64,000 nucleotides of DNA from contig JAHHIM010000005.1 in the NCBI GenBank assembly GCA_019358915.1, positions 32,001-96,000 of the forward strand, in the 5' to 3' direction. A model generated the notes under the pieces. It ran no database searches, was not told the DNA's origin, and was given only the letters and a program-made list of their open reading frames with translations. Position 1 is the stretch's first letter; every line of letters starts with the position of its first letter. The DNA comes from Trichormus sp. ATA11-4-KO1 (GTDB taxonomy: Bacteria; Cyanobacteriota; Cyanobacteriia; Cyanobacteriales; Nostocaceae). Position numbers and translations under genes: made by a program. Shown one piece after another: positions 46,537 through 64,000 of this stretch.

Positions 46537-47514
<978 letters not shown>

Positions 47515-53564: not shown

Positions 53565-54170
53565 CTAGTCAGTGATGGCATTCAGCAAGATTTCTGATAG
53601 GCTGTAATCTTCCATATCGTCCATGGTAATGGTGTCACAGATATCAAATTTAGCCCCAGCACTTTGCATTTCGTCATCCAAGACTTTGAGAAAGCGGGTA
53701 GCTTGCTGATCTGTGCCAACTTGAATAAAGGAAATGCCTAATTCTTCATCTCGATCCATCCGGCGAGACGCTTCAATAATTACCTTCATTACTGCTTTGC
53801 GATCGTCTGGTTCACCATCAGTAACAACTAAAATTGTTTCACCATTCGGTTTGGTTTGACCCGCACCTTTACGTTGAAAGTAATCATCTGTTGCGTGTTT
53901 TAACACAGCAGCTAAATCTGTAGTTCCAGCAGGATCATTTTCTTTAAATATTTGTCCTACCTTACTAGCTGTGACATTTTCATAACGTTTGAATCTACCA
54001 GAAAATAAATAAACAGTGATGCCATCAGGATCATATTGTTCGCACTTACTAGCTAAGGCTAAGGTAGATTCTTGTGCTGCTACCCATCTGCTTCTACCAC
54101 CTTTTTGATCTGGGGTGGCCATGCTACCACTTTTGTCGATAATCAAGGTGTAATCTCGATTTTCTAGCAT
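53565..54170 (-). CDS. vWA domain protein (copy 2)
   Basis: MIDAS DKSGSM, GTTDL, VTDGEP. Confidence 0.93.
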   Translation of the reverse strand: MLENRDYTLIIDKSGSMATPDQKGGRSRWVAAQESTLALASKCEQYDPDGITVYLFSGRFKRYENVTASKVGQIFKENDPAGTTDLAAVLKHATDDYFQRKGAGQTKPNGETILVVTDGEPDDRKAVMKVIIEASRRMDRDEELGISFIQVGTDQQATRFLKVLDDEMQSAGAKFDICDTITMDDMEDYSLSEILLNAITD

Positions 54171-54226
54171 TTTCCAGGCTCCAGTTATTTAGTTAATAGC
54201 CAATATTGAATAGATTCTGGACTGAT

Positions 54227-54832
54227 TCAATCAGTAATTGCATTCATCAATACATCTGCCAGACTCATATCTTCTAAGTCATCTAAGGTGACGGTATCAC
54301 AAATATCGAATTTAGCACCAACACCTTGCAACTGCTCATCTAAAGCTTTGAGAAACTTAGTAGCCTGGGGATCTGACCCGACTTGAATTAAGGAAATTCC
54401 CAATTCTTCATCCCGTTCCATCTGGCGAGTAGCTTGAATAACTACCTCAAATACTGCTCTGCGATCGTCTGGTTCACCATCAGTAATCACTAAAATTGTC
54501 TCGCCATTGGTTTTAGTTTTACCTGCGGCTTTGCGTTGAAAGTAATTATTAAGTGCATCTTGAAGTACACCTGCTAAGTTTGTTGTGCCAGCAGGGTCAT
54601 TTTCTAAAAAAATTTGCGCGACTTTGGCGGAGGTAACATCGTCATAGCGTTTAAATCTGCCAGAAAATACATAAACAGTAATACCATCTGGGTCAAACTG
54701 TTCGCATTTTCTGGCTAAAGCAAGAGTAGACTCTTGGGCTATTTCCCATCGACTTCTACCACCCACTTGGTCAGGGGTAGACATACTACCACTTTTGTCA
54801 ATGATTAATGTGTAGTCGCGATCGCTCATCAT
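54227..54832 (-). CDS. vWA domain protein (copy 1)
   Basis: MIDAS DKSGSM, GTTNL, ITDGEP; close paralogue of its neighbour. Confidence 0.93.
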   Translation of the reverse strand: MMSDRDYTLIIDKSGSMSTPDQVGGRSRWEIAQESTLALARKCEQFDPDGITVYVFSGRFKRYDDVTSAKVAQIFLENDPAGTTNLAGVLQDALNNYFQRKAAGKTKTNGETILVITDGEPDDRRAVFEVVIQATRQMERDEELGISLIQVGSDPQATKFLKALDEQLQGVGAKFDICDTVTLDDLEDMSLADVLMNAITD

Positions 54833-55371: not shown

Positions 55372-55581
55372 TCATGCTGATTTATTACTCTTTTTACTTG
55401 TGGGTGAGGATGAGCTTTTCTGGGAATTTGGCAGTTCTATCTCATTTTTCGCTAACCAATCTTCAATCAATTCTGCTGAAACGTCAGACATATTCAGTCC
55501 TTTAAAAAAACAAACTGTTTTAAACCTGTCTTTTGTTTCAGGGGGCAGGTAAACCCGAATCGAAGCTTCTCCTTGTGCCAC
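55372..55581 (-). CDS. Ribbon-helix-helix (ParG/CopG-like) DNA-binding protein
   Basis: SIRVYLPPETKDRFKTVCFFKGLNMSDVSAELIEDWL is a beta-alpha-alpha pattern; GGAG lies 6 nt before GTG 55581. Confidence 0.8.
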   Translation of the reverse strand: MAQGEASIRVYLPPETKDRFKTVCFFKGLNMSDVSAELIEDWLAKNEIELPNSQKSSSSPTSKKSNKSA

Positions 55582-55605
55582 ACTATACTCCAACGAATAA
55601 ACTTA

Positions 55606-55684
55606 TTCACTAGTTTATTGGTGTAATGGTTCATCGAGAAAAATTATACATTGGTTGACTAATGCACTAGTGCATTGGTATAGT
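55606..55684 (+). promoter_or_regulatory. Sigma70-type promoter (TTGACT-N18-TATAGT) overlapped by 8-bp tandem repeats
   Basis: -35 at 55655-55660, -10 at 55679-55684; octamers TTCACTAG TTTATTGG TGTAATGG TTCATCGA and TACATTGG TTGACTAA TGCACTAG TGCATTGG. Confidence 0.65.
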
Positions 55685-56070: not shown

Positions 56071-57138
56071 ATGCTCAAAAACTTCTGGTATGCTTGTGAA
56101 TTTAGCTCAGCTGTTACCAACCAGCCCAAGCGAATTGTGATGTTAAATCAGAAATTTGTCCTCTATCGTAATTCTCAAGGGCAAGTAGTAGCACTGAAAG
56201 ACCAATGTTCCCATCGTGGTGCAGCATTATCTATGGGTTGGATAGAAGACAATTGTATCCGTTGCCCCTATCATGGATGGAAATTTCAAGCTGATGGGAA
56301 ATGCCTGGAAATCCCTTCCAATGAAATTGACATGCCCATCCCTAAAAGAGCTAATATCAACAGTTACCCAGTACAGGAAAAATATGGTTTTATCTGGCTA
56401 TTTTATGGAGAATTACCGACACAAAAGTGTCCACCAATTCCTCCCTTGCCAGAATATGAAGACCCCAACATGCATCCTATTTATGTAGAATACGAGATGA
56501 AATCTCACTACACTCGTGTCATCGAAAATGCTCTTGATCCGGCTCATCTTTATGCAGTCCATGCTAATTCCTTCGGAGCAGGATTTGCACAAGATCCAAG
56601 AGTTGAAGACTATGTAGTTGAAAATGAAGATTGGGGTATAAGTACTAAAATCATCTACAAGAATTACACTAAACCTAAAAATGGCATATTTAAATCATTT
56701 TTTCGCCCAAAAAAGACACAGTTAAATGCCAAAATTTGCTTTTACCCTCCTAACATAACTAAATTTGAAAGTGACTTTGGTCGTGGCAAAATTATTAATT
56801 ATGCCATCCACATTCCTGTTGATGATCATACGACCATTAGTAAGCGCATCCAATTACGTAATTTCTTCACCTATTCTTGGGCAGATAACTTATTTGTGAA
56901 GTTTCACCATAAAGTAGGTTTAGAAGATAAAGTAGTAACTGAGTCTCAATATCCCAAGTTGATACCTGACACTTTATCAACGGAAGTTCATGTTCCTGCT
57001 GATGCTTTAACTCTGGCTTATCGACAGCTGCGTCAAAAATATTTAGCTATGGGCTGGGGTTTGCAATCTCATAAAAATAAATCAGACAATTGTCACCAAA
57101 ATCAAGCACGACCTATTTACACCTCATTGATGAACTAA
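56071..57138 (+). CDS. Rieske non-heme iron oxygenase alpha subunit (VanA/CAO-like), copy 1
   Basis: CSH-X16-CPYH Rieske motif; ENALDPAHLYAVH mononuclear Fe site; distal ED. Confidence 0.95.
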   Translation: MLKNFWYACEFSSAVTNQPKRIVMLNQKFVLYRNSQGQVVALKDQCSHRGAALSMGWIEDNCIRCPYHGWKFQADGKCLEIPSNEIDMPIPKRANINSYPVQEKYGFIWLFYGELPTQKCPPIPPLPEYEDPNMHPIYVEYEMKSHYTRVIENALDPAHLYAVHANSFGAGFAQDPRVEDYVVENEDWGISTKIIYKNYTKPKNGIFKSFFRPKKTQLNAKICFYPPNITKFESDFGRGKIINYAIHIPVDDHTTISKRIQLRNFFTYSWADNLFVKFHHKVGLEDKVVTESQYPKLIPDTLSTEVHVPADALTLAYRQLRQKYLAMGWGLQSHKNKSDNCHQNQARPIYTSLMN

Positions 57139-57273: not shown

Positions 57274-58341
57274 ATGTTGAAAAACTTTTGGTATGCTTGT
57301 GAATTTAGCTCGGCTATTACCAATAAGCCTAAGCAAGTTGTCATGTTTAATCAGAGATTTGTCCTGTATCGCGACTCTCATGGAAAAATCATCGCGTTGC
57401 AGGATCAGTGTCCCCATCGTGGTGCTGCTTTTTCTCTTGGTTGGATTGAAAAAGATTGTATTCGTTGTCCCTATCATGGATGGAAATTTCAAGCTGACGG
57501 GAAATGTGTAGAAATTCCTTCTAATGCACATGGAACTCCTATCCCCAAAAAATCTCGTGTAGATAGCTACCCAGTCAAAGAAAAGTATGGTTTCGTCTGG
57601 CTATTTTATGGGGACTTACCAGAAGCAGAACGTCCTCCCTTGCCAACTTTTCCCGAATACATGGTCGAGACCATGCGTCCTGTTTACGATGATGGGATAG
57701 ACCATGCTAACTATGCTCGTCTCATGGAAGCTAATCTTGATTTTACTCATGTCATAGCAGTCCATAGAAAATCTTTTGGTCAAAGAATCCCTATCAATAA
57801 AACTATCAATTATCAAGTTGATAAATACGATTGGGGTGCAGTTGCCAAAGTTAATTATGAGTCCTTAGGTAATTCCAAAAGTTTCTTAAACTTTTTACTT
57901 GGTGGACGCCCCGAATTAAAGACAAAATTGACCTTGTATCTGCCCAATGTTACCCTCGCAGAAATTAATGTAGGTAGAGGTGGCAGATTTGATATTAAGT
58001 TTGGAATTTTAGTTGCCCACTTGCCCATTGATGAAAATACCACTCGTGTAAAACGCGTTTTGTATCGCAATATTTTACCCGTACCTTGGTTAGATGGTTT
58101 TTTTAGGAAAATTGACCACAAACTTGCTCAAGAAGACACCGTAGTAGTAGCAACTTTAGATTCTCAACCAATGCCAAAAATATCAGATGAACTTCATGTT
58201 GCTGCTGATGCTTTGGATATTACTTTTCGTAAGTTTCTGCAAAAATCTCAGGCTTCATTTTCTGAGTCGAACCTGGATAACCAAAACCACCTTGTTCATG
58301 AATCTTCAAAACTAGTTCATGTGATAGGTGACAGGGGATAG
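57274..58341 (+). CDS. Rieske non-heme iron oxygenase alpha subunit, copy 2
   Basis: CPH-X16-CPYH; EANLDFTHVIAVH; distal ED. Confidence 0.95.
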   Translation: MLKNFWYACEFSSAITNKPKQVVMFNQRFVLYRDSHGKIIALQDQCPHRGAAFSLGWIEKDCIRCPYHGWKFQADGKCVEIPSNAHGTPIPKKSRVDSYPVKEKYGFVWLFYGDLPEAERPPLPTFPEYMVETMRPVYDDGIDHANYARLMEANLDFTHVIAVHRKSFGQRIPINKTINYQVDKYDWGAVAKVNYESLGNSKSFLNFLLGGRPELKTKLTLYLPNVTLAEINVGRGGRFDIKFGILVAHLPIDENTTRVKRVLYRNILPVPWLDGFFRKIDHKLAQEDTVVVATLDSQPMPKISDELHVAADALDITFRKFLQKSQASFSESNLDNQNHLVHESSKLVHVIGDRG

Positions 58342-58427: not shown

Positions 58428-59432
58428 ATGACTGATGTCCTAGAAAGAACAGTGACACAACAACCAACAATGCGTGGGGTAATAGACAAGATTTTCAGAC
58501 AGATGTTTGAAAATACTTGCCAAGCACTGGTAGCTATGGATGGTAAAGAGCTTCGTGAACAGTCCTGGAATCGAGATCAAAAGGGCATCTGGACAGTTGG
58601 TAAAAGTAGTGAAGATGCTATCTATATTGATCGTGCGTTGCACAATGGCAATGTCTTTGAAAAGATGGGAGCCAACTATGTAGCGATAGAGGGTGAGTTA
58701 CCTCCGGGAATGTCTTTTCAGCAATCAGGTGCGCTGGCTACAGGTGCAGCAGATCAAATGATTACGACTAGAGGTAATCGCTTCTTCGCCACAGGTTCTA
58801 GCTTTGTGATTCATCCCCACAACCCGATGGCACCGACGGCGCATGTCAACTACCGTTATTTTCAAATTAGTAACGGCAATCAACCTGTTTATTGGTGGCT
58901 TGGCGGCGGCGCAGACCTGACACCGGCATACCTATTTGAGGAAGATGCAGTGCATTTTCATCAGGTGCATAAAGAGGTTTGTGACAAGTACGATCCTGCT
59001 TATTACCCACGTTTTAAAAAGTGGTGTGACGAGTACTTCCACATCCCACATCGAGCTGAAAGCCGGGGTATAGGGGGAATTTTCTTCGACCATCTCAATA
59101 ACGGCAATCCTCAAAAACTGCTGTCATTTGTGACAAATTGTGCTGATGCTTTTATTCCTGCCTATCTGCCGATTGTCGAAAGACGTAAAGATATGTCCTT
59201 TACAGAAGCAAATAAGAATTGGCAACATCTGGTGCGGGGGCGCTATGTGGAATTTATCTTGTCCTGCGATCGCGGCATCCGTTTTGGTTTAGCCAGTGGT
59301 ATGGTGAAGCAGCAAAGTGTGTTTAATTGTATGCCTCCTGCTGCTAGCTGGGAATATGACGATCAACCTGTCCCTGGTAGCAAAGAAGCGATGCTCAAAG
59401 AAGTTTTGCAAAATCCTCGAGATTGGCTATAA
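58428..59432 (+). CDS. hemF: Divergent oxygen-dependent coproporphyrinogen III oxidase homologue (HemF-like)
   Basis: GNVFEK, HPHNPMAPTAHVNYRYF, WWLGGGADLTP, FKKWCDEYF, RGIGGIFFD, RGRYVEF. Confidence 0.9.
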   Translation: MTDVLERTVTQQPTMRGVIDKIFRQMFENTCQALVAMDGKELREQSWNRDQKGIWTVGKSSEDAIYIDRALHNGNVFEKMGANYVAIEGELPPGMSFQQSGALATGAADQMITTRGNRFFATGSSFVIHPHNPMAPTAHVNYRYFQISNGNQPVYWWLGGGADLTPAYLFEEDAVHFHQVHKEVCDKYDPAYYPRFKKWCDEYFHIPHRAESRGIGGIFFDHLNNGNPQKLLSFVTNCADAFIPAYLPIVERRKDMSFTEANKNWQHLVRGRYVEFILSCDRGIRFGLASGMVKQQSVFNCMPPAASWEYDDQPVPGSKEAMLKEVLQNPRDWL

Positions 59433-59802: not shown

Positions 59803-60429
59803 ATGAGCATGGAAACTGAACTGGTTACAGGCAATCTTCGCATGGAAGATATCATCAATCTAGATGAATCAAAAGCCATGAATTTGTTTAGGAAGAGATT
59901 TCAAAGATACAAAAAGCTGGCAGAGGAAATAGGAGATGCAGCCGCTTTTGAAAAGATGATGGAAAAATATCCTGAACAACAAAAGGCGTTGATGGGTACT
60001 TTCATTGATCACAATACTCTAGCGCAAGGTTTCCAGGAAGCTGCTCCTTTGTTAGGATTGATGGGTTTTGTCATGGATATAGTAGATGTCTCGCAAAACG
60101 GGACAGATGCAGCATTAGAAATTCAAAGGGTTTGCCCAGTTTTATCTATCGCTAAAGAATACGGTTTTGATCAGCCGTGTCGTGTTTTTTGTGAGATGGA
60201 ACAAGAAGCGACTAGAAGAGCTTTTCCTGGGATAAAAGCTGCGATTTTGAGTAAACAAGCAGAAGGAGACTGTGTTTGTGTATTTAAGTATGAAAGATTG
60301 ACTAATCAGTCGTTAATCTCAAATACACAAACATCAAGTTTAATACATGGTTTTTTGACTTTAATTGGACTAATTCCCAACTTGCTTAAGATTGGTGTCA
60401 AGATGGTCAAATTGCGGTTATTTAATTAA
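59803..60429 (+). CDS. L-2-amino-thiazoline-4-carboxylate hydrolase-family protein (TolI-like)
   Basis: CP..(X)..CRVFCEME...GDCVCVF cysteine pattern; located directly after hemF. Confidence 0.7.
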   Translation: MSMETELVTGNLRMEDIINLDESKAMNLFRKRFQRYKKLAEEIGDAAAFEKMMEKYPEQQKALMGTFIDHNTLAQGFQEAAPLLGLMGFVMDIVDVSQNGTDAALEIQRVCPVLSIAKEYGFDQPCRVFCEMEQEATRRAFPGIKAAILSKQAEGDCVCVFKYERLTNQSLISNTQTSSLIHGFLTLIGLIPNLLKIGVKMVKLRLFN

Positions 60430-60589: not shown

Positions 60590-62005
60590 ATGAACAGCAT
60601 TATTTCAGATTTAAAACAAATTATTGCAGGTGAAGTTAGTAACTTAGAAGCAGAATTAGCAGCAGTTTCTCAAGATTTTGGTGGCATTATTCAAAAACGA
60701 CCTCAAATTGTAGTTCGTCCGCAAAATTCTACTGATGTTGCTCAAGTAATTCAGTATGCTGCTAAACAAGGATTAACTGTTTCGTCACGAGCTGCGGGAC
60801 ATTCACTAGGTGGTCAATCTTTGAATCAAGATGGAATTCTTTTAGATATGCGGAATCTCAATCAAATTCACGAATTCCGTCCCGATGAACTTTGGTTTAA
60901 AGCTGATCCTGGTGTGACGTGGAAGCAGGTAGTTGATATTTCTATACCTCATGGTGTAATTCCGCCTGTACTCACAAATAACTTTGAGGTTACTTTGGGA
61001 GGAACTCTATCTGCGGCTGGTTTAGGCTTGAGTTCTTTTCGTTATGGTTCTCAAGCTGATAATTGTTTGGGTTTGGAAGTTGTTACTGGTACAGGAGATA
61101 TTGTCTGGTGTACACCAGAAGCAAATAGTGAACTTTTTTATCATGTGCTTTGTGGTTATGGGCAGTTTGGCATTATCACGAAAGTTCAAAATCGCCTGAG
61201 AAAATATCGTTCTTACACTCGCAGTTATTTTCTTTGCTATGACGATTTAGATACTCTTTTAAATGATGAGCGTCGCCTTGTTTCTGAAGGTTGTATTGAT
61301 GGTTTAGTATCTTTGTTCTCTCCTTGCCTACTAGGAATGTCTAGGCTAGAAACGAAGATTAAACCCCTAATTCAGTGGTTTTACAGAATGCAAATTACTT
61401 TAGAAGTGGATTCTGTTAATGATATAAATGAAGAAAAATTGCTTTCTGGTTTAAATTTTTATCGTCACATCCACACCGAAGACCTAACTTTTGATAAATT
61501 CATTCAACCAATGGGGCAAGTATCTCATCCTGTAGGTACTGCTAACACCTGGATAGATATTCTTTTACCAGGAGCAAAGGCAAAAGAATTTATCGATATT
61601 GCGCTTCAGTACATACCTTCCTTTATTGACTTCCGAACTATACCTGTAGGTTCCTTTTGTCTTAATTCTCGCAATCATCAAACGCCCATGTTTCCTTTAC
61701 CAGAAGATGATTTAATTATCGGGTTAGGTATGTATCCAACTATCCCTAAATCTCAGCTTAAACCTGTGCTAGAGCAATTAAATCTACTCACTGATCTGGG
61801 CTTCCAAATGGGTGGCAAAAGATATATGGCTACCTGGGTAGAATTTGACCTACCAAGATGGCGACTGCAATTCGGTGATTACTGGCCTAAAGTCAATGAA
61901 ATGAAAAGGAAATATGACCCTCATGGGATACTCAATCCTGGTTTCTTCAAGTATGAACAGGTTGAACAGGCGAATCTCAAAAGTATTTATGTCCCGTCCC
62001 ATTAA
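60590..62005 (+). CDS. FAD-binding oxidoreductase (VAO/cytokinin dehydrogenase-like)
   Basis: RAAGHSLGGQS (putative covalent-FAD His), TLGGTLS, LEVVTGTG, GQFGIIT, KRKYDPHGILNPG. Confidence 0.92.
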   Translation: MNSIISDLKQIIAGEVSNLEAELAAVSQDFGGIIQKRPQIVVRPQNSTDVAQVIQYAAKQGLTVSSRAAGHSLGGQSLNQDGILLDMRNLNQIHEFRPDELWFKADPGVTWKQVVDISIPHGVIPPVLTNNFEVTLGGTLSAAGLGLSSFRYGSQADNCLGLEVVTGTGDIVWCTPEANSELFYHVLCGYGQFGIITKVQNRLRKYRSYTRSYFLCYDDLDTLLNDERRLVSEGCIDGLVSLFSPCLLGMSRLETKIKPLIQWFYRMQITLEVDSVNDINEEKLLSGLNFYRHIHTEDLTFDKFIQPMGQVSHPVGTANTWIDILLPGAKAKEFIDIALQYIPSFIDFRTIPVGSFCLNSRNHQTPMFPLPEDDLIIGLGMYPTIPKSQLKPVLEQLNLLTDLGFQMGGKRYMATWVEFDLPRWRLQFGDYWPKVNEMKRKYDPHGILNPGFFKYEQVEQANLKSIYVPSH

Positions 62006-62020
62006 TCAGGCGTAAAAACG

Positions 62021-63241
62021 ATGTTGCGAAATTCTGAGGAAATGAAGAAATCATCTCTATTTCCTACTAATTTGCGTTGGTTAGCTGCTGTGGGTATTAC
62101 CTGTATGATGGCGATGGGAGCGGGAGTAGTATATGTCACTCGTCCACCAGCTACTACGAAAAATCCAGTCGTCACTGCACAAGTGAGCCAACCAGTTATT
62201 CCCAAGGTGAATGCATTAGGAAGATTAGAGCCAGCAGGTGAAGTAATTAAGATTTCGGCTCCAACTAATCCCAGTGCTGGTAGTGGTAGCCGTGTTACTC
62301 AATTGTTAGTTGAGGAAGGTACGCAGGTACGAGCAGGACAGACGATCGCCATTTTGGATAATCGCGATCGCCTACAAGCTAATTTAAAAGAAGCACAGCA
62401 GCAAGTCCGAGTGGCTCAATCCCGACTGACTCAAGTCAAAGCCGGGGCCAAACAAGGTGAAATAACCGCTAGACAAGCAACTGTGAGCAATCTGCAAGCA
62501 CAGTTAGATGGTGAAATCCAAACCCAACAAGCTACTATTGCTCGCTTAGAAGCAGGGTTACAGAACGCAGAGATAGAATTTCGCCGCTATGAAAGTCTTT
62601 ATCAAGAAGGCGCGATCGCGGCTGCGGATCTCGATGGTCGGAGATTAACTTTAAGAACCGCTCAAGCAGAATTGAATGGTGCTAAAGCCAGCTTACAAAG
62701 AACACAACGCACCATCACAGCCCAAATTCAAGAAGCCAAAGCCACCTTGGAGCAAACAGCAGAAGTGCGTCCTACAGATATAGCCACAGCACAGGCAGAA
62801 GTAGATAGTGCGATCGCCTCAGTTGAGAAAATGCGAGTTGAACTCGACTCAGCATATATTCGCGCCCCAAAAGCAGGTCAAATTCTGCGAATTCAAGCTC
62901 GTCCCGGCGAAACTATCGATGAAGCAGGAATTGTCGAACTTGGTCAAACAGAGCAAATGTATGCTGTAGCTGAAATCTACGAAAGTGATATCGCTAAAAT
63001 TCGCCCTGGTCAAACTGCCAGTATTACTAGTCCTAGCAATGCCTTTGAGGGTAAGTTAAGCGGCACAGTTGATCGTATTGGTTTAAAAGTGGCGAAAAAA
63101 GATGTCTTAGACAGCGACCCCACGGCGGCCACAGATGCCAGGGTAATTGAAGCCAAAATTCGTTTAGATCAAACAGCAAGCCAGCAAGTGGCTAACTTTA
63201 CTAACCTTCAAGTCAATGTCGAAATAGTCATTGGTCAATAG
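62021..63241 (+). CDS. devB: DevB family ABC exporter membrane-fusion protein
   Basis: ALGRLEPAGEVI, MYAVAEIYESDI, DARVIE, TNLQVNV. Confidence 0.92.
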   Translation: MLRNSEEMKKSSLFPTNLRWLAAVGITCMMAMGAGVVYVTRPPATTKNPVVTAQVSQPVIPKVNALGRLEPAGEVIKISAPTNPSAGSGSRVTQLLVEEGTQVRAGQTIAILDNRDRLQANLKEAQQQVRVAQSRLTQVKAGAKQGEITARQATVSNLQAQLDGEIQTQQATIARLEAGLQNAEIEFRRYESLYQEGAIAAADLDGRRLTLRTAQAELNGAKASLQRTQRTITAQIQEAKATLEQTAEVRPTDIATAQAEVDSAIASVEKMRVELDSAYIRAPKAGQILRIQARPGETIDEAGIVELGQTEQMYAVAEIYESDIAKIRPGQTASITSPSNAFEGKLSGTVDRIGLKVAKKDVLDSDPTAATDARVIEAKIRLDQTASQQVANFTNLQVNVEIVIGQ

Positions 63242-63328: not shown

Positions 63329-64000
63329 ATGTTCAAACCCAAAATCCCCTTGGCTTGGCGGCAACTAATGAAACAAAAAGGGCGGTTTCTCGTTGCCCTT
63401 TGTGGAATTACATTTGCCGATTTTCTCATGTTAATGCAGTTGGGCTTTCAGTCGGCTTTATATGATAGTAATACCCGCTTTCATGAACTTTTACAAGCAG
63501 ATTTAGTATTAATGAGCCGCCAAGGGCAAAATCTAGGATTACTCAGTAGTTTTCCTCGTCGGCGGTTGTTTCAAGCTGCTAATCTATCTGAGGTTGAGTC
63601 AGTTAATCCTTTGTATATTCGTATAGGAGTTTGGAAAAGTCCCCAAACTAAGTTAGATGAATCAATTTTAGTAATCGGCTTTAATCCAGAAAAACCTGCG
63701 TTTAATTTACCAGCAGTCAATCAAAAATTAGATCAGATTAAATATCCCAACACACTGTTATTTGACCGTAACGCCAACGGGAAATATGAACAGGCGATCG
63801 CTCAAATATCTGAAGGTAAACCTGTCACGACAGAACTGCAAGGACGTAAAGTTAAAATTGGCGGTTTGTATGAGGTTGGTGCATCTTTTGTAGCTAATGG
63901 CAGTGTAATTACTAGTGACCAGAACTACTTGCGAATTTTTTCGGCACAGCAACCAGGTAACGTCAACCTGGGTTTAATTAATCTTAAATCGGGTAGTGAT
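63329..64000 (+). CDS. devC: DevC family ABC exporter permease, truncated at the right window edge
   Basis: Manual translation MFKPKIPLAWRQLMKQKGRFLVALCGITFADFLMLMQLGFQSALYDSN..SFPRRRL; open to the window end. Confidence 0.92.
   Translation, partial: MFKPKIPLAWRQLMKQKGRFLVALCGITFADFLMLMQLGFQSALYDSNTRFHELLQADLVLMSRQGQNLGLLSSFPRRRLFQAANLSEVESVNPLYIRIGVWKSPQTKLDESILVIGFNPEKPAFNLPAVNQKLDQIKYPNTLLFDRNANGKYEQAIAQISEGKPVTTELQGRKVKIGGLYEVGASFVANGSVITSDQNYLRIFSAQQPGNVNLGLINLKSGSD

Follow-up and report, generated by a model that had tools for sequence, protein, structure and literature searches.

A hemF2 gene in a reduced tolyporphin-type gene cluster of Trichormus sp. ATA11-4-KO1 and other Nostocales

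HemF2 of strain HT-58-2 is reported to decarboxylate protoporphyrinogen IX at rings C and D (PMC10548856), TolI of Oculatella to strip all four vinyls (PMC10459692), and the P450 TolH to turn tolyporphyrinogen P into a hydroxy-oxo product (PMC10548856, PMC10459692). HT-58-2 carries two tolyporphin (tol) clusters, BGC-1 and BGC-2. The assays of HemF2 probably used the BGC-1 copy, because a tolyporphin review places the focus of the work on BGC-1. All tol clusters considered by Jin et al. 2021 are stated to have clustered hem genes, tolB, tolD and a P450 (PMC8401325). The same study reports that in three strains with fuller tol clusters tolyporphin was undetectable in three assays (PMC8401325), and therefore such clusters can be silent in culture. 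For tolyporphins, a non-axenic culture is the only producer known and no physiological role is on record (PMC10459692).

The window considered here is a stretch of 64,000 nucleotides from Trichormus sp. ATA11-4-KO1. Its forward strand contains an open reading frame at 58428..59432 (334 aa, ATG to TAA) that encodes a HemF2-type coproporphyrinogen oxidase paralogue and holds both segments quoted in the initial annotation, KGIWTVGKSSEDAIYIDRAL and LVRGRYVEFILSCDRGIRFGLASGMVKQQSVFNCMPP. The protein passes the cut-offs of Pfam PF01218 (370 bits against 31.8) and of the NCBIfam HemF equivalog NF003727 (316 against 297), and its predicted fold matches solved coproporphyrinogen oxidase structures (Foldseek E 2.5e-26 to yeast Hem13). 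The genome, whose completeness is 99.89%, contains one other HemF (C1:255337-256383), which is canonical in all motifs and 39% identical to the window protein. The window gene is a paralogue, the second HemF copy of the genome. Enzymes of this kind are already known, and the cluster around the gene is an undescribed variant.

The hemF2 gene belongs to an operon read from one strand in the order Rieske-Rieske-hemF2-tolI-tolJ-devB-devC, with a divergent gene for a 69-aa ribbon-helix-helix (RHH) protein. The first gene, at 56071..57138 (+), encodes a 355-aa Rieske non-haem iron oxygenase (Rieske A) with the Pfam domains Rieske and VanA_C; it resembles HcaE of tol BGC-2 and is 62% identical to the first HcaE of both HT-58-2 BGC-2 and Oculatella. 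The second, at 57274..58341 (+), encodes Rieske B, also of 355 aa, which is 49% identical to Rieske A, 73% to the second HcaE of BGC-2 and 66% to that of Oculatella. Judging by their sequences, the two are old paralogues maintained side by side. Both have an intact Rieske motif CxH...CxxH and an intact His-His-Asp iron site, and the corresponding residues (C46/H48/C65/H68, H159/H164 and D288 in the numbering of Rieske B) are conserved in at least 97% of 105 tol Rieske proteins. Among solved structures no close characterised relative was found, the best match (E 1e-27) covering the N-terminal half only.

Downstream of hemF2 lies an orthologue of the vinyl-cleaving Fe-S enzyme gene tolI (59803..60429, +, 208 aa, weak Pfam match ATC_hydrolase). 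Its product is 62% identical to the assayed Oculatella TolI over 206 aa and 60% and 66% identical to the HT-58-2 copies, and it has four invariant cysteines (111, 126, 130, 159) and a long C-terminal helix. A fold search returned middling matches of the V4R/H-NOX/TRAPP type (best Z 9.6, rmsd 3.4, 135 aligned residues) and gave no functional lead. It is followed by a tolJ orthologue (60590..62005, +, 471 aa) encoding an FAD-binding oxidase of the cytokinin-dehydrogenase type, 58%, 75% and 70% identical to TolJ of BGC-1, BGC-2 and Oculatella, respectively. The last two genes encode a DevB-family ABC exporter membrane-fusion protein (62021..63241, +, 406 aa, TIGR02971 361 bits against a cut-off of 129) and a DevC-family permease (63329..64000, +, continuing past the window to position 64486). 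No devA follows devC at this locus, where the contig goes on with unrelated genes; several DevA paralogues at about 70% are encoded elsewhere in the genome. Two tandem 201-aa vWA/TerF-like genes (53565-54832, -), common only to the closest relative (L001), mark the left edge of the cluster. A short-chain dehydrogenase gene (Pfam adh_short, 46549-47514, +), whose product is presumably protochlorophyllide-reductase-like, lies about 8.5 kb upstream; it is absent from related loci and probably unrelated.

The initial annotation had proposed an altered specificity, such as that reported for the tolyporphin HemF2, and suggested a phylogeny to examine it. In the careful tree, which took 33 of 102 rows, the window protein, both HT-58-2 copies and the Oculatella protein form a HemF2 group with support 100/99. 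The same clade is recovered with SH-aLRT 98 in the quick tree of 102 rows, from which five truncated HemF ORFs were excluded. The union of the window protein with cyanobacterial housekeeping HemF and HemF1 is rejected (p-AU 6e-05). The proposal is thus supported by the tree, and also by shared signature residues and by the position of the gene directly upstream of the TolI orthologue. The window protein is 58% identical to HemF2 of HT-58-2 BGC-1, to which it aligns without gaps, 72% to that of BGC-2 and 63% to that of Oculatella LEGE 06141. The computed identities of Oculatella HemF2 to the two HT-58-2 copies, 56% and 68%, match the 56 and 67 given in a published table of the tolyporphin review; therefore the HemF2 assignments are confirmed.

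The HemF2-wide signature, defined here from the alignment and not taken from a publication, is present in the window protein, both HT-58-2 copies and Oculatella. Among the 22 residues listed, 13 are common to the window protein and the BGC-1 copy: F27, W55, G58, Y66, D68, I277, R285, V293, Q296, N300, C301, M302 and D312. Within the clade, 48 of 66 proteins, including those of the window, BGC-2 and Oculatella, form a subtype with valine at the position of human R388, set apart by 14 diagnostic columns on a branch with support 100/99. The BGC-1 protein belongs to the sister subtype, which retains the R388 equivalent and differs in the 14 columns, and so the HtHemF2 that was assayed and the window protein probably belong to different subtypes. 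The HemF2s of reduced clusters such as that of the window form one branch (SH-aLRT 100) that includes a protein named in its source as Nodularia spumigena (P0008).

In a homologue search, about 100 clusters at 55% identity or more precede the first canonical-type sequences. The closest HemFs by score (P0105-P0120) have canonical motifs, are of a non-cyanobacterial type and show 50-54% identity; cyanobacterial HemF shows 39%. Proteins named in their sources as Gloeobacter kilaueensis (P0090) and Trichocoleus (P0093) also fall into the HemF2 clade, the Gloeobacter one branching deepest. The trees suggest that HemF2 may have originated outside cyanobacterial HemF and may not be a duplicate of cyanobacterial hemF, the node concerned having weak support (76/64) with an outgroup chosen from the best matches.

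Human CPOX numbering was taken from the alignment with 2AEX, with an offset of 108 inferred from D400/R401/K404. A variant map of human CPOX lists S244, H258, N260, R262, D282, R332, D400, G402 and G406 as intolerant to change or substrate-recognising (10.64898/2026.07.02.735896). All these residues are kept in the window protein, as S125, H139, N141, R143, D163, R213, D281, G283 and G287, and the catalytic core, including human R401 (R282), is present in the alignment. The retention of the core HemF motifs noted initially therefore extends to every essential catalytic residue. On the other hand, the 66 HemF2-type proteins depart from 29 canonical HemFs in 26 columns that are at least 85% conserved in the latter, and therefore these changes are not drift.

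The replacements fall into two regions. The segment GGG..SRV had been described as replaced. It is indeed changed, but by an insertion of about 11 residues, which extends a beta-hairpin with strands predicted at 43-49, 55-57 and 64-72 in the model; the arginine of SRV is kept (R69) and the serine is changed to Asp68. The second region is the helix and loop at approximately 388-421 of human CPOX, including the active-site loop 400-413. Here the C-terminal consensus (EFNL.YDRGT...R.ESILMSLP) was correctly seen to be altered, and its motif columns are replaced in the alignment: V269 stands for R388, I277 for N396, C280 for Y399, K294 for R413, Q296 for E415, and NCM (300-302) for MSL.

It had also been argued that loss of propionate-binding arginines would alter specificity. 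The only arginines lost are the equivalents of R388 (V269) and R413 (K294), which agrees with the argument, but R143, R209, R213, R270, R272 and R282 are kept, the catalytic arginines among them, and R388 is lost only in the subtype of 48/66 HemF2s and retained in the BGC-1 copy. R413 is named as propionate-engaging, yet tolerant to change, in the human variant study (10.64898/2026.07.02.735896). At this column arginine occurs in 29/29 canonical HemFs, while the 66 HemF2s have mostly Lys, Asn or Ser. The pattern of residues is consistent with a live enzyme whose pocket would be re-shaped and less basic. In the AlphaFold model, the C-terminal loop that is remodelled is predicted with low confidence (53-68 for blocks 281-320).

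The features that define published tol clusters were searched for at the locus. No clustered hem genes were found in the window or in the same contig up to 39 kb beyond it; single dispersed matches to hemA, hemC, hemE and hemL occur elsewhere in the genome. Neither the glycosyltransferase gene tolD nor tolB was found at the locus, and the best TolD match in the genome is at 24%. A TolD orthologue was found in 0/25 related genomes and in 0/14 further genomes with tolI, as against 3/3 controls positive at 62% or more. No TolG/TolH P450 was found at the locus either. The six P450s of the genome, up to 49% identical to TolH, fall outside the TolG/H clade (SH-aLRT 99), and those of the 25 relatives reach at most 51%, compared with 52-66% for cluster-borne copies, a thin margin based on identity and not on a tree. 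All these absences of TolD and P450 refer to draft genomes, which may hide genes. The window cluster departs from the published tol definition on three tested features, yet it shares the core. No description of the reduced cluster was found in the literature searched, although subscription papers, among them the JACS paper and its supplement, may mention it. Nodularia is not named in the text of the tolyporphin review or in the supplement of Jin et al. 2021.

A scan of species-representative genomes for TolI yielded 76 loci, 67 cyanobacterial and nine distant non-cyanobacterial ones, whose neighbours were counted within 10 kb on each side; kin are not independent in any of these counts. The hemF2 gene lies upstream of tolI in 66/67 cyanobacterial loci, the lone miss being cut by a contig end. 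The same 67 loci contain tolJ in 66 cases, a tol-type Rieske gene in 61, hemA in 36, a TolG/H-like P450 in 15 (13 full length) and a TolD-like gene in eight. Six loci have no Rieske gene: four have a TolG/H P450 instead, one is truncated where its contig ends, and in one tolJ is absent as well. Ten loci have a Rieske gene and a full-length TolG/H P450 together.

The arrangement of the window recurs in 25 other Nostocales loci, 24 with both Rieske genes and one cut by a contig end. The carriers are Nodularia, Anabaenopsis, Umezakia, Chrysosporum, Cyanocohniella, Komarekiella, Halotia, Dendronalium, Amazonocrinis, Atlanticothrix and Nostoc records. Each of the two Rieske proteins of these loci forms a branch matching the HemF2 branch. 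The devA gene follows devC in 11/24 loci with devC and is missing in 13/24, including the window. TolI occurs in 50/301 genomes of the family at E 1e-20, one of the 50 being merely a distant homologue, and, in a sample of the phylum, in 3/45 members of the family and 0/355 others; its prevalence in the family is roughly 7-16%, depending on the sampling. Median dN/dS is 0.09-0.16 for all seven genes in 14-15 pairs, which share the window and thus are not independent. The reduced cluster is under purifying selection across genera. Fifteen RNA-labelled runs from five studies contain part of the orthologous cluster of one genome (G197). Four of them were mapped: two cover the operon by long contigs together with intergenic and flanking DNA, and two are patchy; all these data are contigs, in which DNA and transcript are indistinguishable.

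Other arrangements were observed in the same scan. Fourteen Nostoc records (L046-L048, L050-L052, L054-L060, L065), several labelled as Peltigera cyanobionts or similar, share a second undescribed tol architecture in the order RHH, hemF2 (BGC-1 subtype), tolI, tolJ, hemA, one Rieske gene, hemE, hemC, hemB, an alpha/beta hydrolase gene, hemF1, devB. No P450 or TolD gene was found within the span examined, and the copy of L065 is on a plasmid. Repeat-rich proteins of one cluster (c27), with a secreted calcium-binding look by eye, are encoded in or beside several tol loci (L023, L033, L037, L045), and between tolJ and hemA in three (L032, L033, L036). Shorter TolI-like proteins, with 43-51% identity over the core and without hemF2, were found at L089:7708-8268 (G099), L090:7390-7935 (G270) and L067-L075, others occurring in Chlorobiaceae and Deltaproteobacteria records. 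The G099 gene lies between hoxH-like and hydrogenase-maturation-protease-like genes of a bidirectional hydrogenase cluster, labelled so by reading the sequences. Proteins of this kind possibly represent the family from which TolI was recruited.

The divergent RHH gene (55372..55581, -) encodes a ParG-like protein of 69 aa (Pfam ParG 22.4 bits, cut-off 21.4) and has a GTG start with GGAG 6 nt upstream. It is present in 25/26 reduced-cluster loci, 88-100% identical over 50 aa, and its product is 35-44% identical to that of the tandem RHH gene found next to hemF2 in Oculatella and in 15 further tol loci. Just upstream of its start, at 55596..55619, there is an inverted repeat AATAAAC-N10-GTTTATT, a candidate operator. 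Among the matches listed, this repeat was found in 21 of 77 scanned loci, all with reduced clusters; the genome has a single exact match. A candidate sigma-70-type promoter of the operon, TTGACT-18 nt-TATAGT (55655..55684, +), is the best-scoring site (10/12) and lies within a conserved block. Its spacer contains a 16-bp palindrome (55661-55676), unique in the window and found, among the matches listed, in 20 reduced-cluster loci; the site is also a candidate operator. The scanned region contains fewer consensus sites (10) than shuffled sequences (19.9), and for this reason it is conservation, rather than the scan, that supports the promoter call. The operon is probably regulated by the RHH protein via the shared promoter region. 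In the 500 nt upstream of the first Rieske gene, NtcA boxes (2/25 loci) and the heterocyst DIF1 motif (1/25 loci) are not conserved, the patterns scanned being what we take to be the consensus.

The window gene is an orthologue of tolyporphin hemF2, and its product likely decarboxylates the C and D propionates of protoporphyrinogen IX to vinyls, which would commit this intermediate to a reduced pathway of the tolyporphin type as its first step. Protoporphyrinogen IX would come from the housekeeping Hem enzymes, because hem genes are absent from the cluster. HemF2 would very probably convert it to tetravinyl-tetramethylporphyrinogen, and TolI, a step placed almost as firmly, would remove the four vinyls as acetaldehyde to give tolyporphyrinogen P. 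The next step is tentative, with slightly less in favour than against: the Rieske pair may stand in for the absent P450 TolH and introduce into this core the hydroxy-oxo pyrroline motif seen in tolyporphins Q and J, which carry no sugar. The favoured target would be the methyl-bearing pyrrole double bond. The Rieske proteins and the P450 may fill the same step, as hinted at by the P450 present in four of the six loci without a Rieske gene. However, the ten loci with both mean that they are not simple alternatives, and the six other P450s of the genome could act in trans. TolJ is predicted to oxidise the macrocycle or a secondary alcohol, and DevBC, using a DevA encoded at another locus of the genome, to export the sugar-free pigment.

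The main alternative has the same entry through HemF2 and TolI, with the Rieske pair oxidising methyls (to hydroxymethyl, formyl or carboxyl) or opening the ring, so that the product would be a tetrapyrrole outside tolyporphins A-R. Such chemistry on tetrapyrroles is carried out by two other Rieske enzymes, chlorophyllide a oxygenase and pheophorbide a oxygenase. The best NCBIfam match of both window Rieskes is SdmA, a sterol methyl monooxygenase (116-121 bits, far under the cut-off of 600), their look-alikes in the structure Atlas are of the VanA/TsaM type, the nearest named models being methyl or O-methyl oxidisers, and two old paralogues suggest two different reactions. However, the other Rieske oxygenases of the genome, which we take from their sequences to include PaO/Tic55-like ones, are only about 24-40% identical to the window pair over partial stretches, and four Rieske-free clusters have a P450 instead. 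Moreover, both Rieske orthologues are present in BGC-2 and Oculatella, and the available descriptions of tolyporphins contain no such product. We regard this reading as unlikely, although methyl oxidation deserves serious attention.

The second alternative, which we regard as quite improbable, is that the subtype with valine at R388 differs in specificity, removing one C/D propionate or acting on another porphyrinogen, so that the product would keep an acid side chain. The 14 diagnostic columns and the 100/99 branch set this subtype apart, and we know of no member that has been assayed. On the other hand, the HemF2-wide signature residues are all common to both subtypes, and the additional loss of an arginine would fit a less charged, not a more charged, substrate. 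Oculatella, the source of the assayed TolI, has a HemF2 of the same subtype, and this TolI is reported to remove four vinyls (PMC10459692). Finally, the gene could encode an ordinary second coproporphyrinogen oxidase for use in special conditions, or belong to the decaying remains of a full tol cluster. Such a reading would agree with the HemF equivalog score, the retained catalytic core, the missing hem, P450 and sugar genes and the loss of devA in 13/24 loci with devC, but it is highly improbable given the phylogeny, the fixed linkage to tolI, open frames with dN/dS of about 0.1 across genera, and the conserved regulator and candidate operators.

If the preferred reading, with HemF2 and TolI leading into a sugar-free tolyporphin-type product, is correct, a porphyrin pigment without sugars that has gone unrecognised is likely made by many filamentous cyanobacteria, bloom-forming genera among them. 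A bolder version, held still more tentatively than the role of the Rieske pair, is that the Rieske-based sugar-free route would be the commonest tolyporphin biosynthesis and the glycosylated pigments of HT-58-2 the exception. In that case, bloom-formers of brackish and fresh water (Nodularia, Anabaenopsis, Umezakia, Chrysosporum) would turn protoporphyrinogen IX, via the five-enzyme module, into an undescribed exported metal-free tetrapyrrole, and the Rieskes would be the first of their kind to convert a porphyrinogen into an oxochlorin or bacteriochlorin. The pigment predicted in common bloom-formers could have escaped earlier assays aimed at the 676-nm band of dioxobacteriochlorins. The minimal cluster of five enzymes and a small regulator makes testable the roles of the HcaE-like Rieske pair and of TolJ, the simplest tolyporphin-type product, and its purpose; it would also provide a compact route to beta-unsubstituted porphyrin scaffolds. 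The chemistry of the gene itself was anticipated. The initial annotation had overlooked the genes around it, which are the main finding, and it is this reduced, widespread and regulated cluster that brings the tolyporphin questions to tractable strains.

Compared with canonical HemF, CgdC and CPOX, the window protein has the same fold and catalytic residues, but it is only 39% identical to the canonical copy of its own genome, differs in the 26 replaced columns and falls into a separate clade. With HemF2 of HT-58-2 and Oculatella it shares the clade, the length of 334 aa, the N-terminal insertion, the remodelled C-terminal loop and the place upstream of tolI-tolJ; it differs in belonging to the valine subtype of BGC-2 and Oculatella and, within it, to the separate branch of the reduced clusters. 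At the level of the cluster, hemA/B/C/E/L/F1, the sugar and acyl genes tolA-F, the P450s TolG/H and devA, known from the clusters of Jin et al. 2021, are absent from the window, the Rieske pair sits at the head of the operon, and, as compared with other tol loci, a single-domain RHH gene replaces the tandem one. The paired HcaE-like Rieske genes are common to the window, BGC-2, Oculatella and FACHB-892, and hemF2, tolI, tolJ, devB and devC are shared with BGC-1, BGC-2 and the seven other clusters of Jin et al. 2021.
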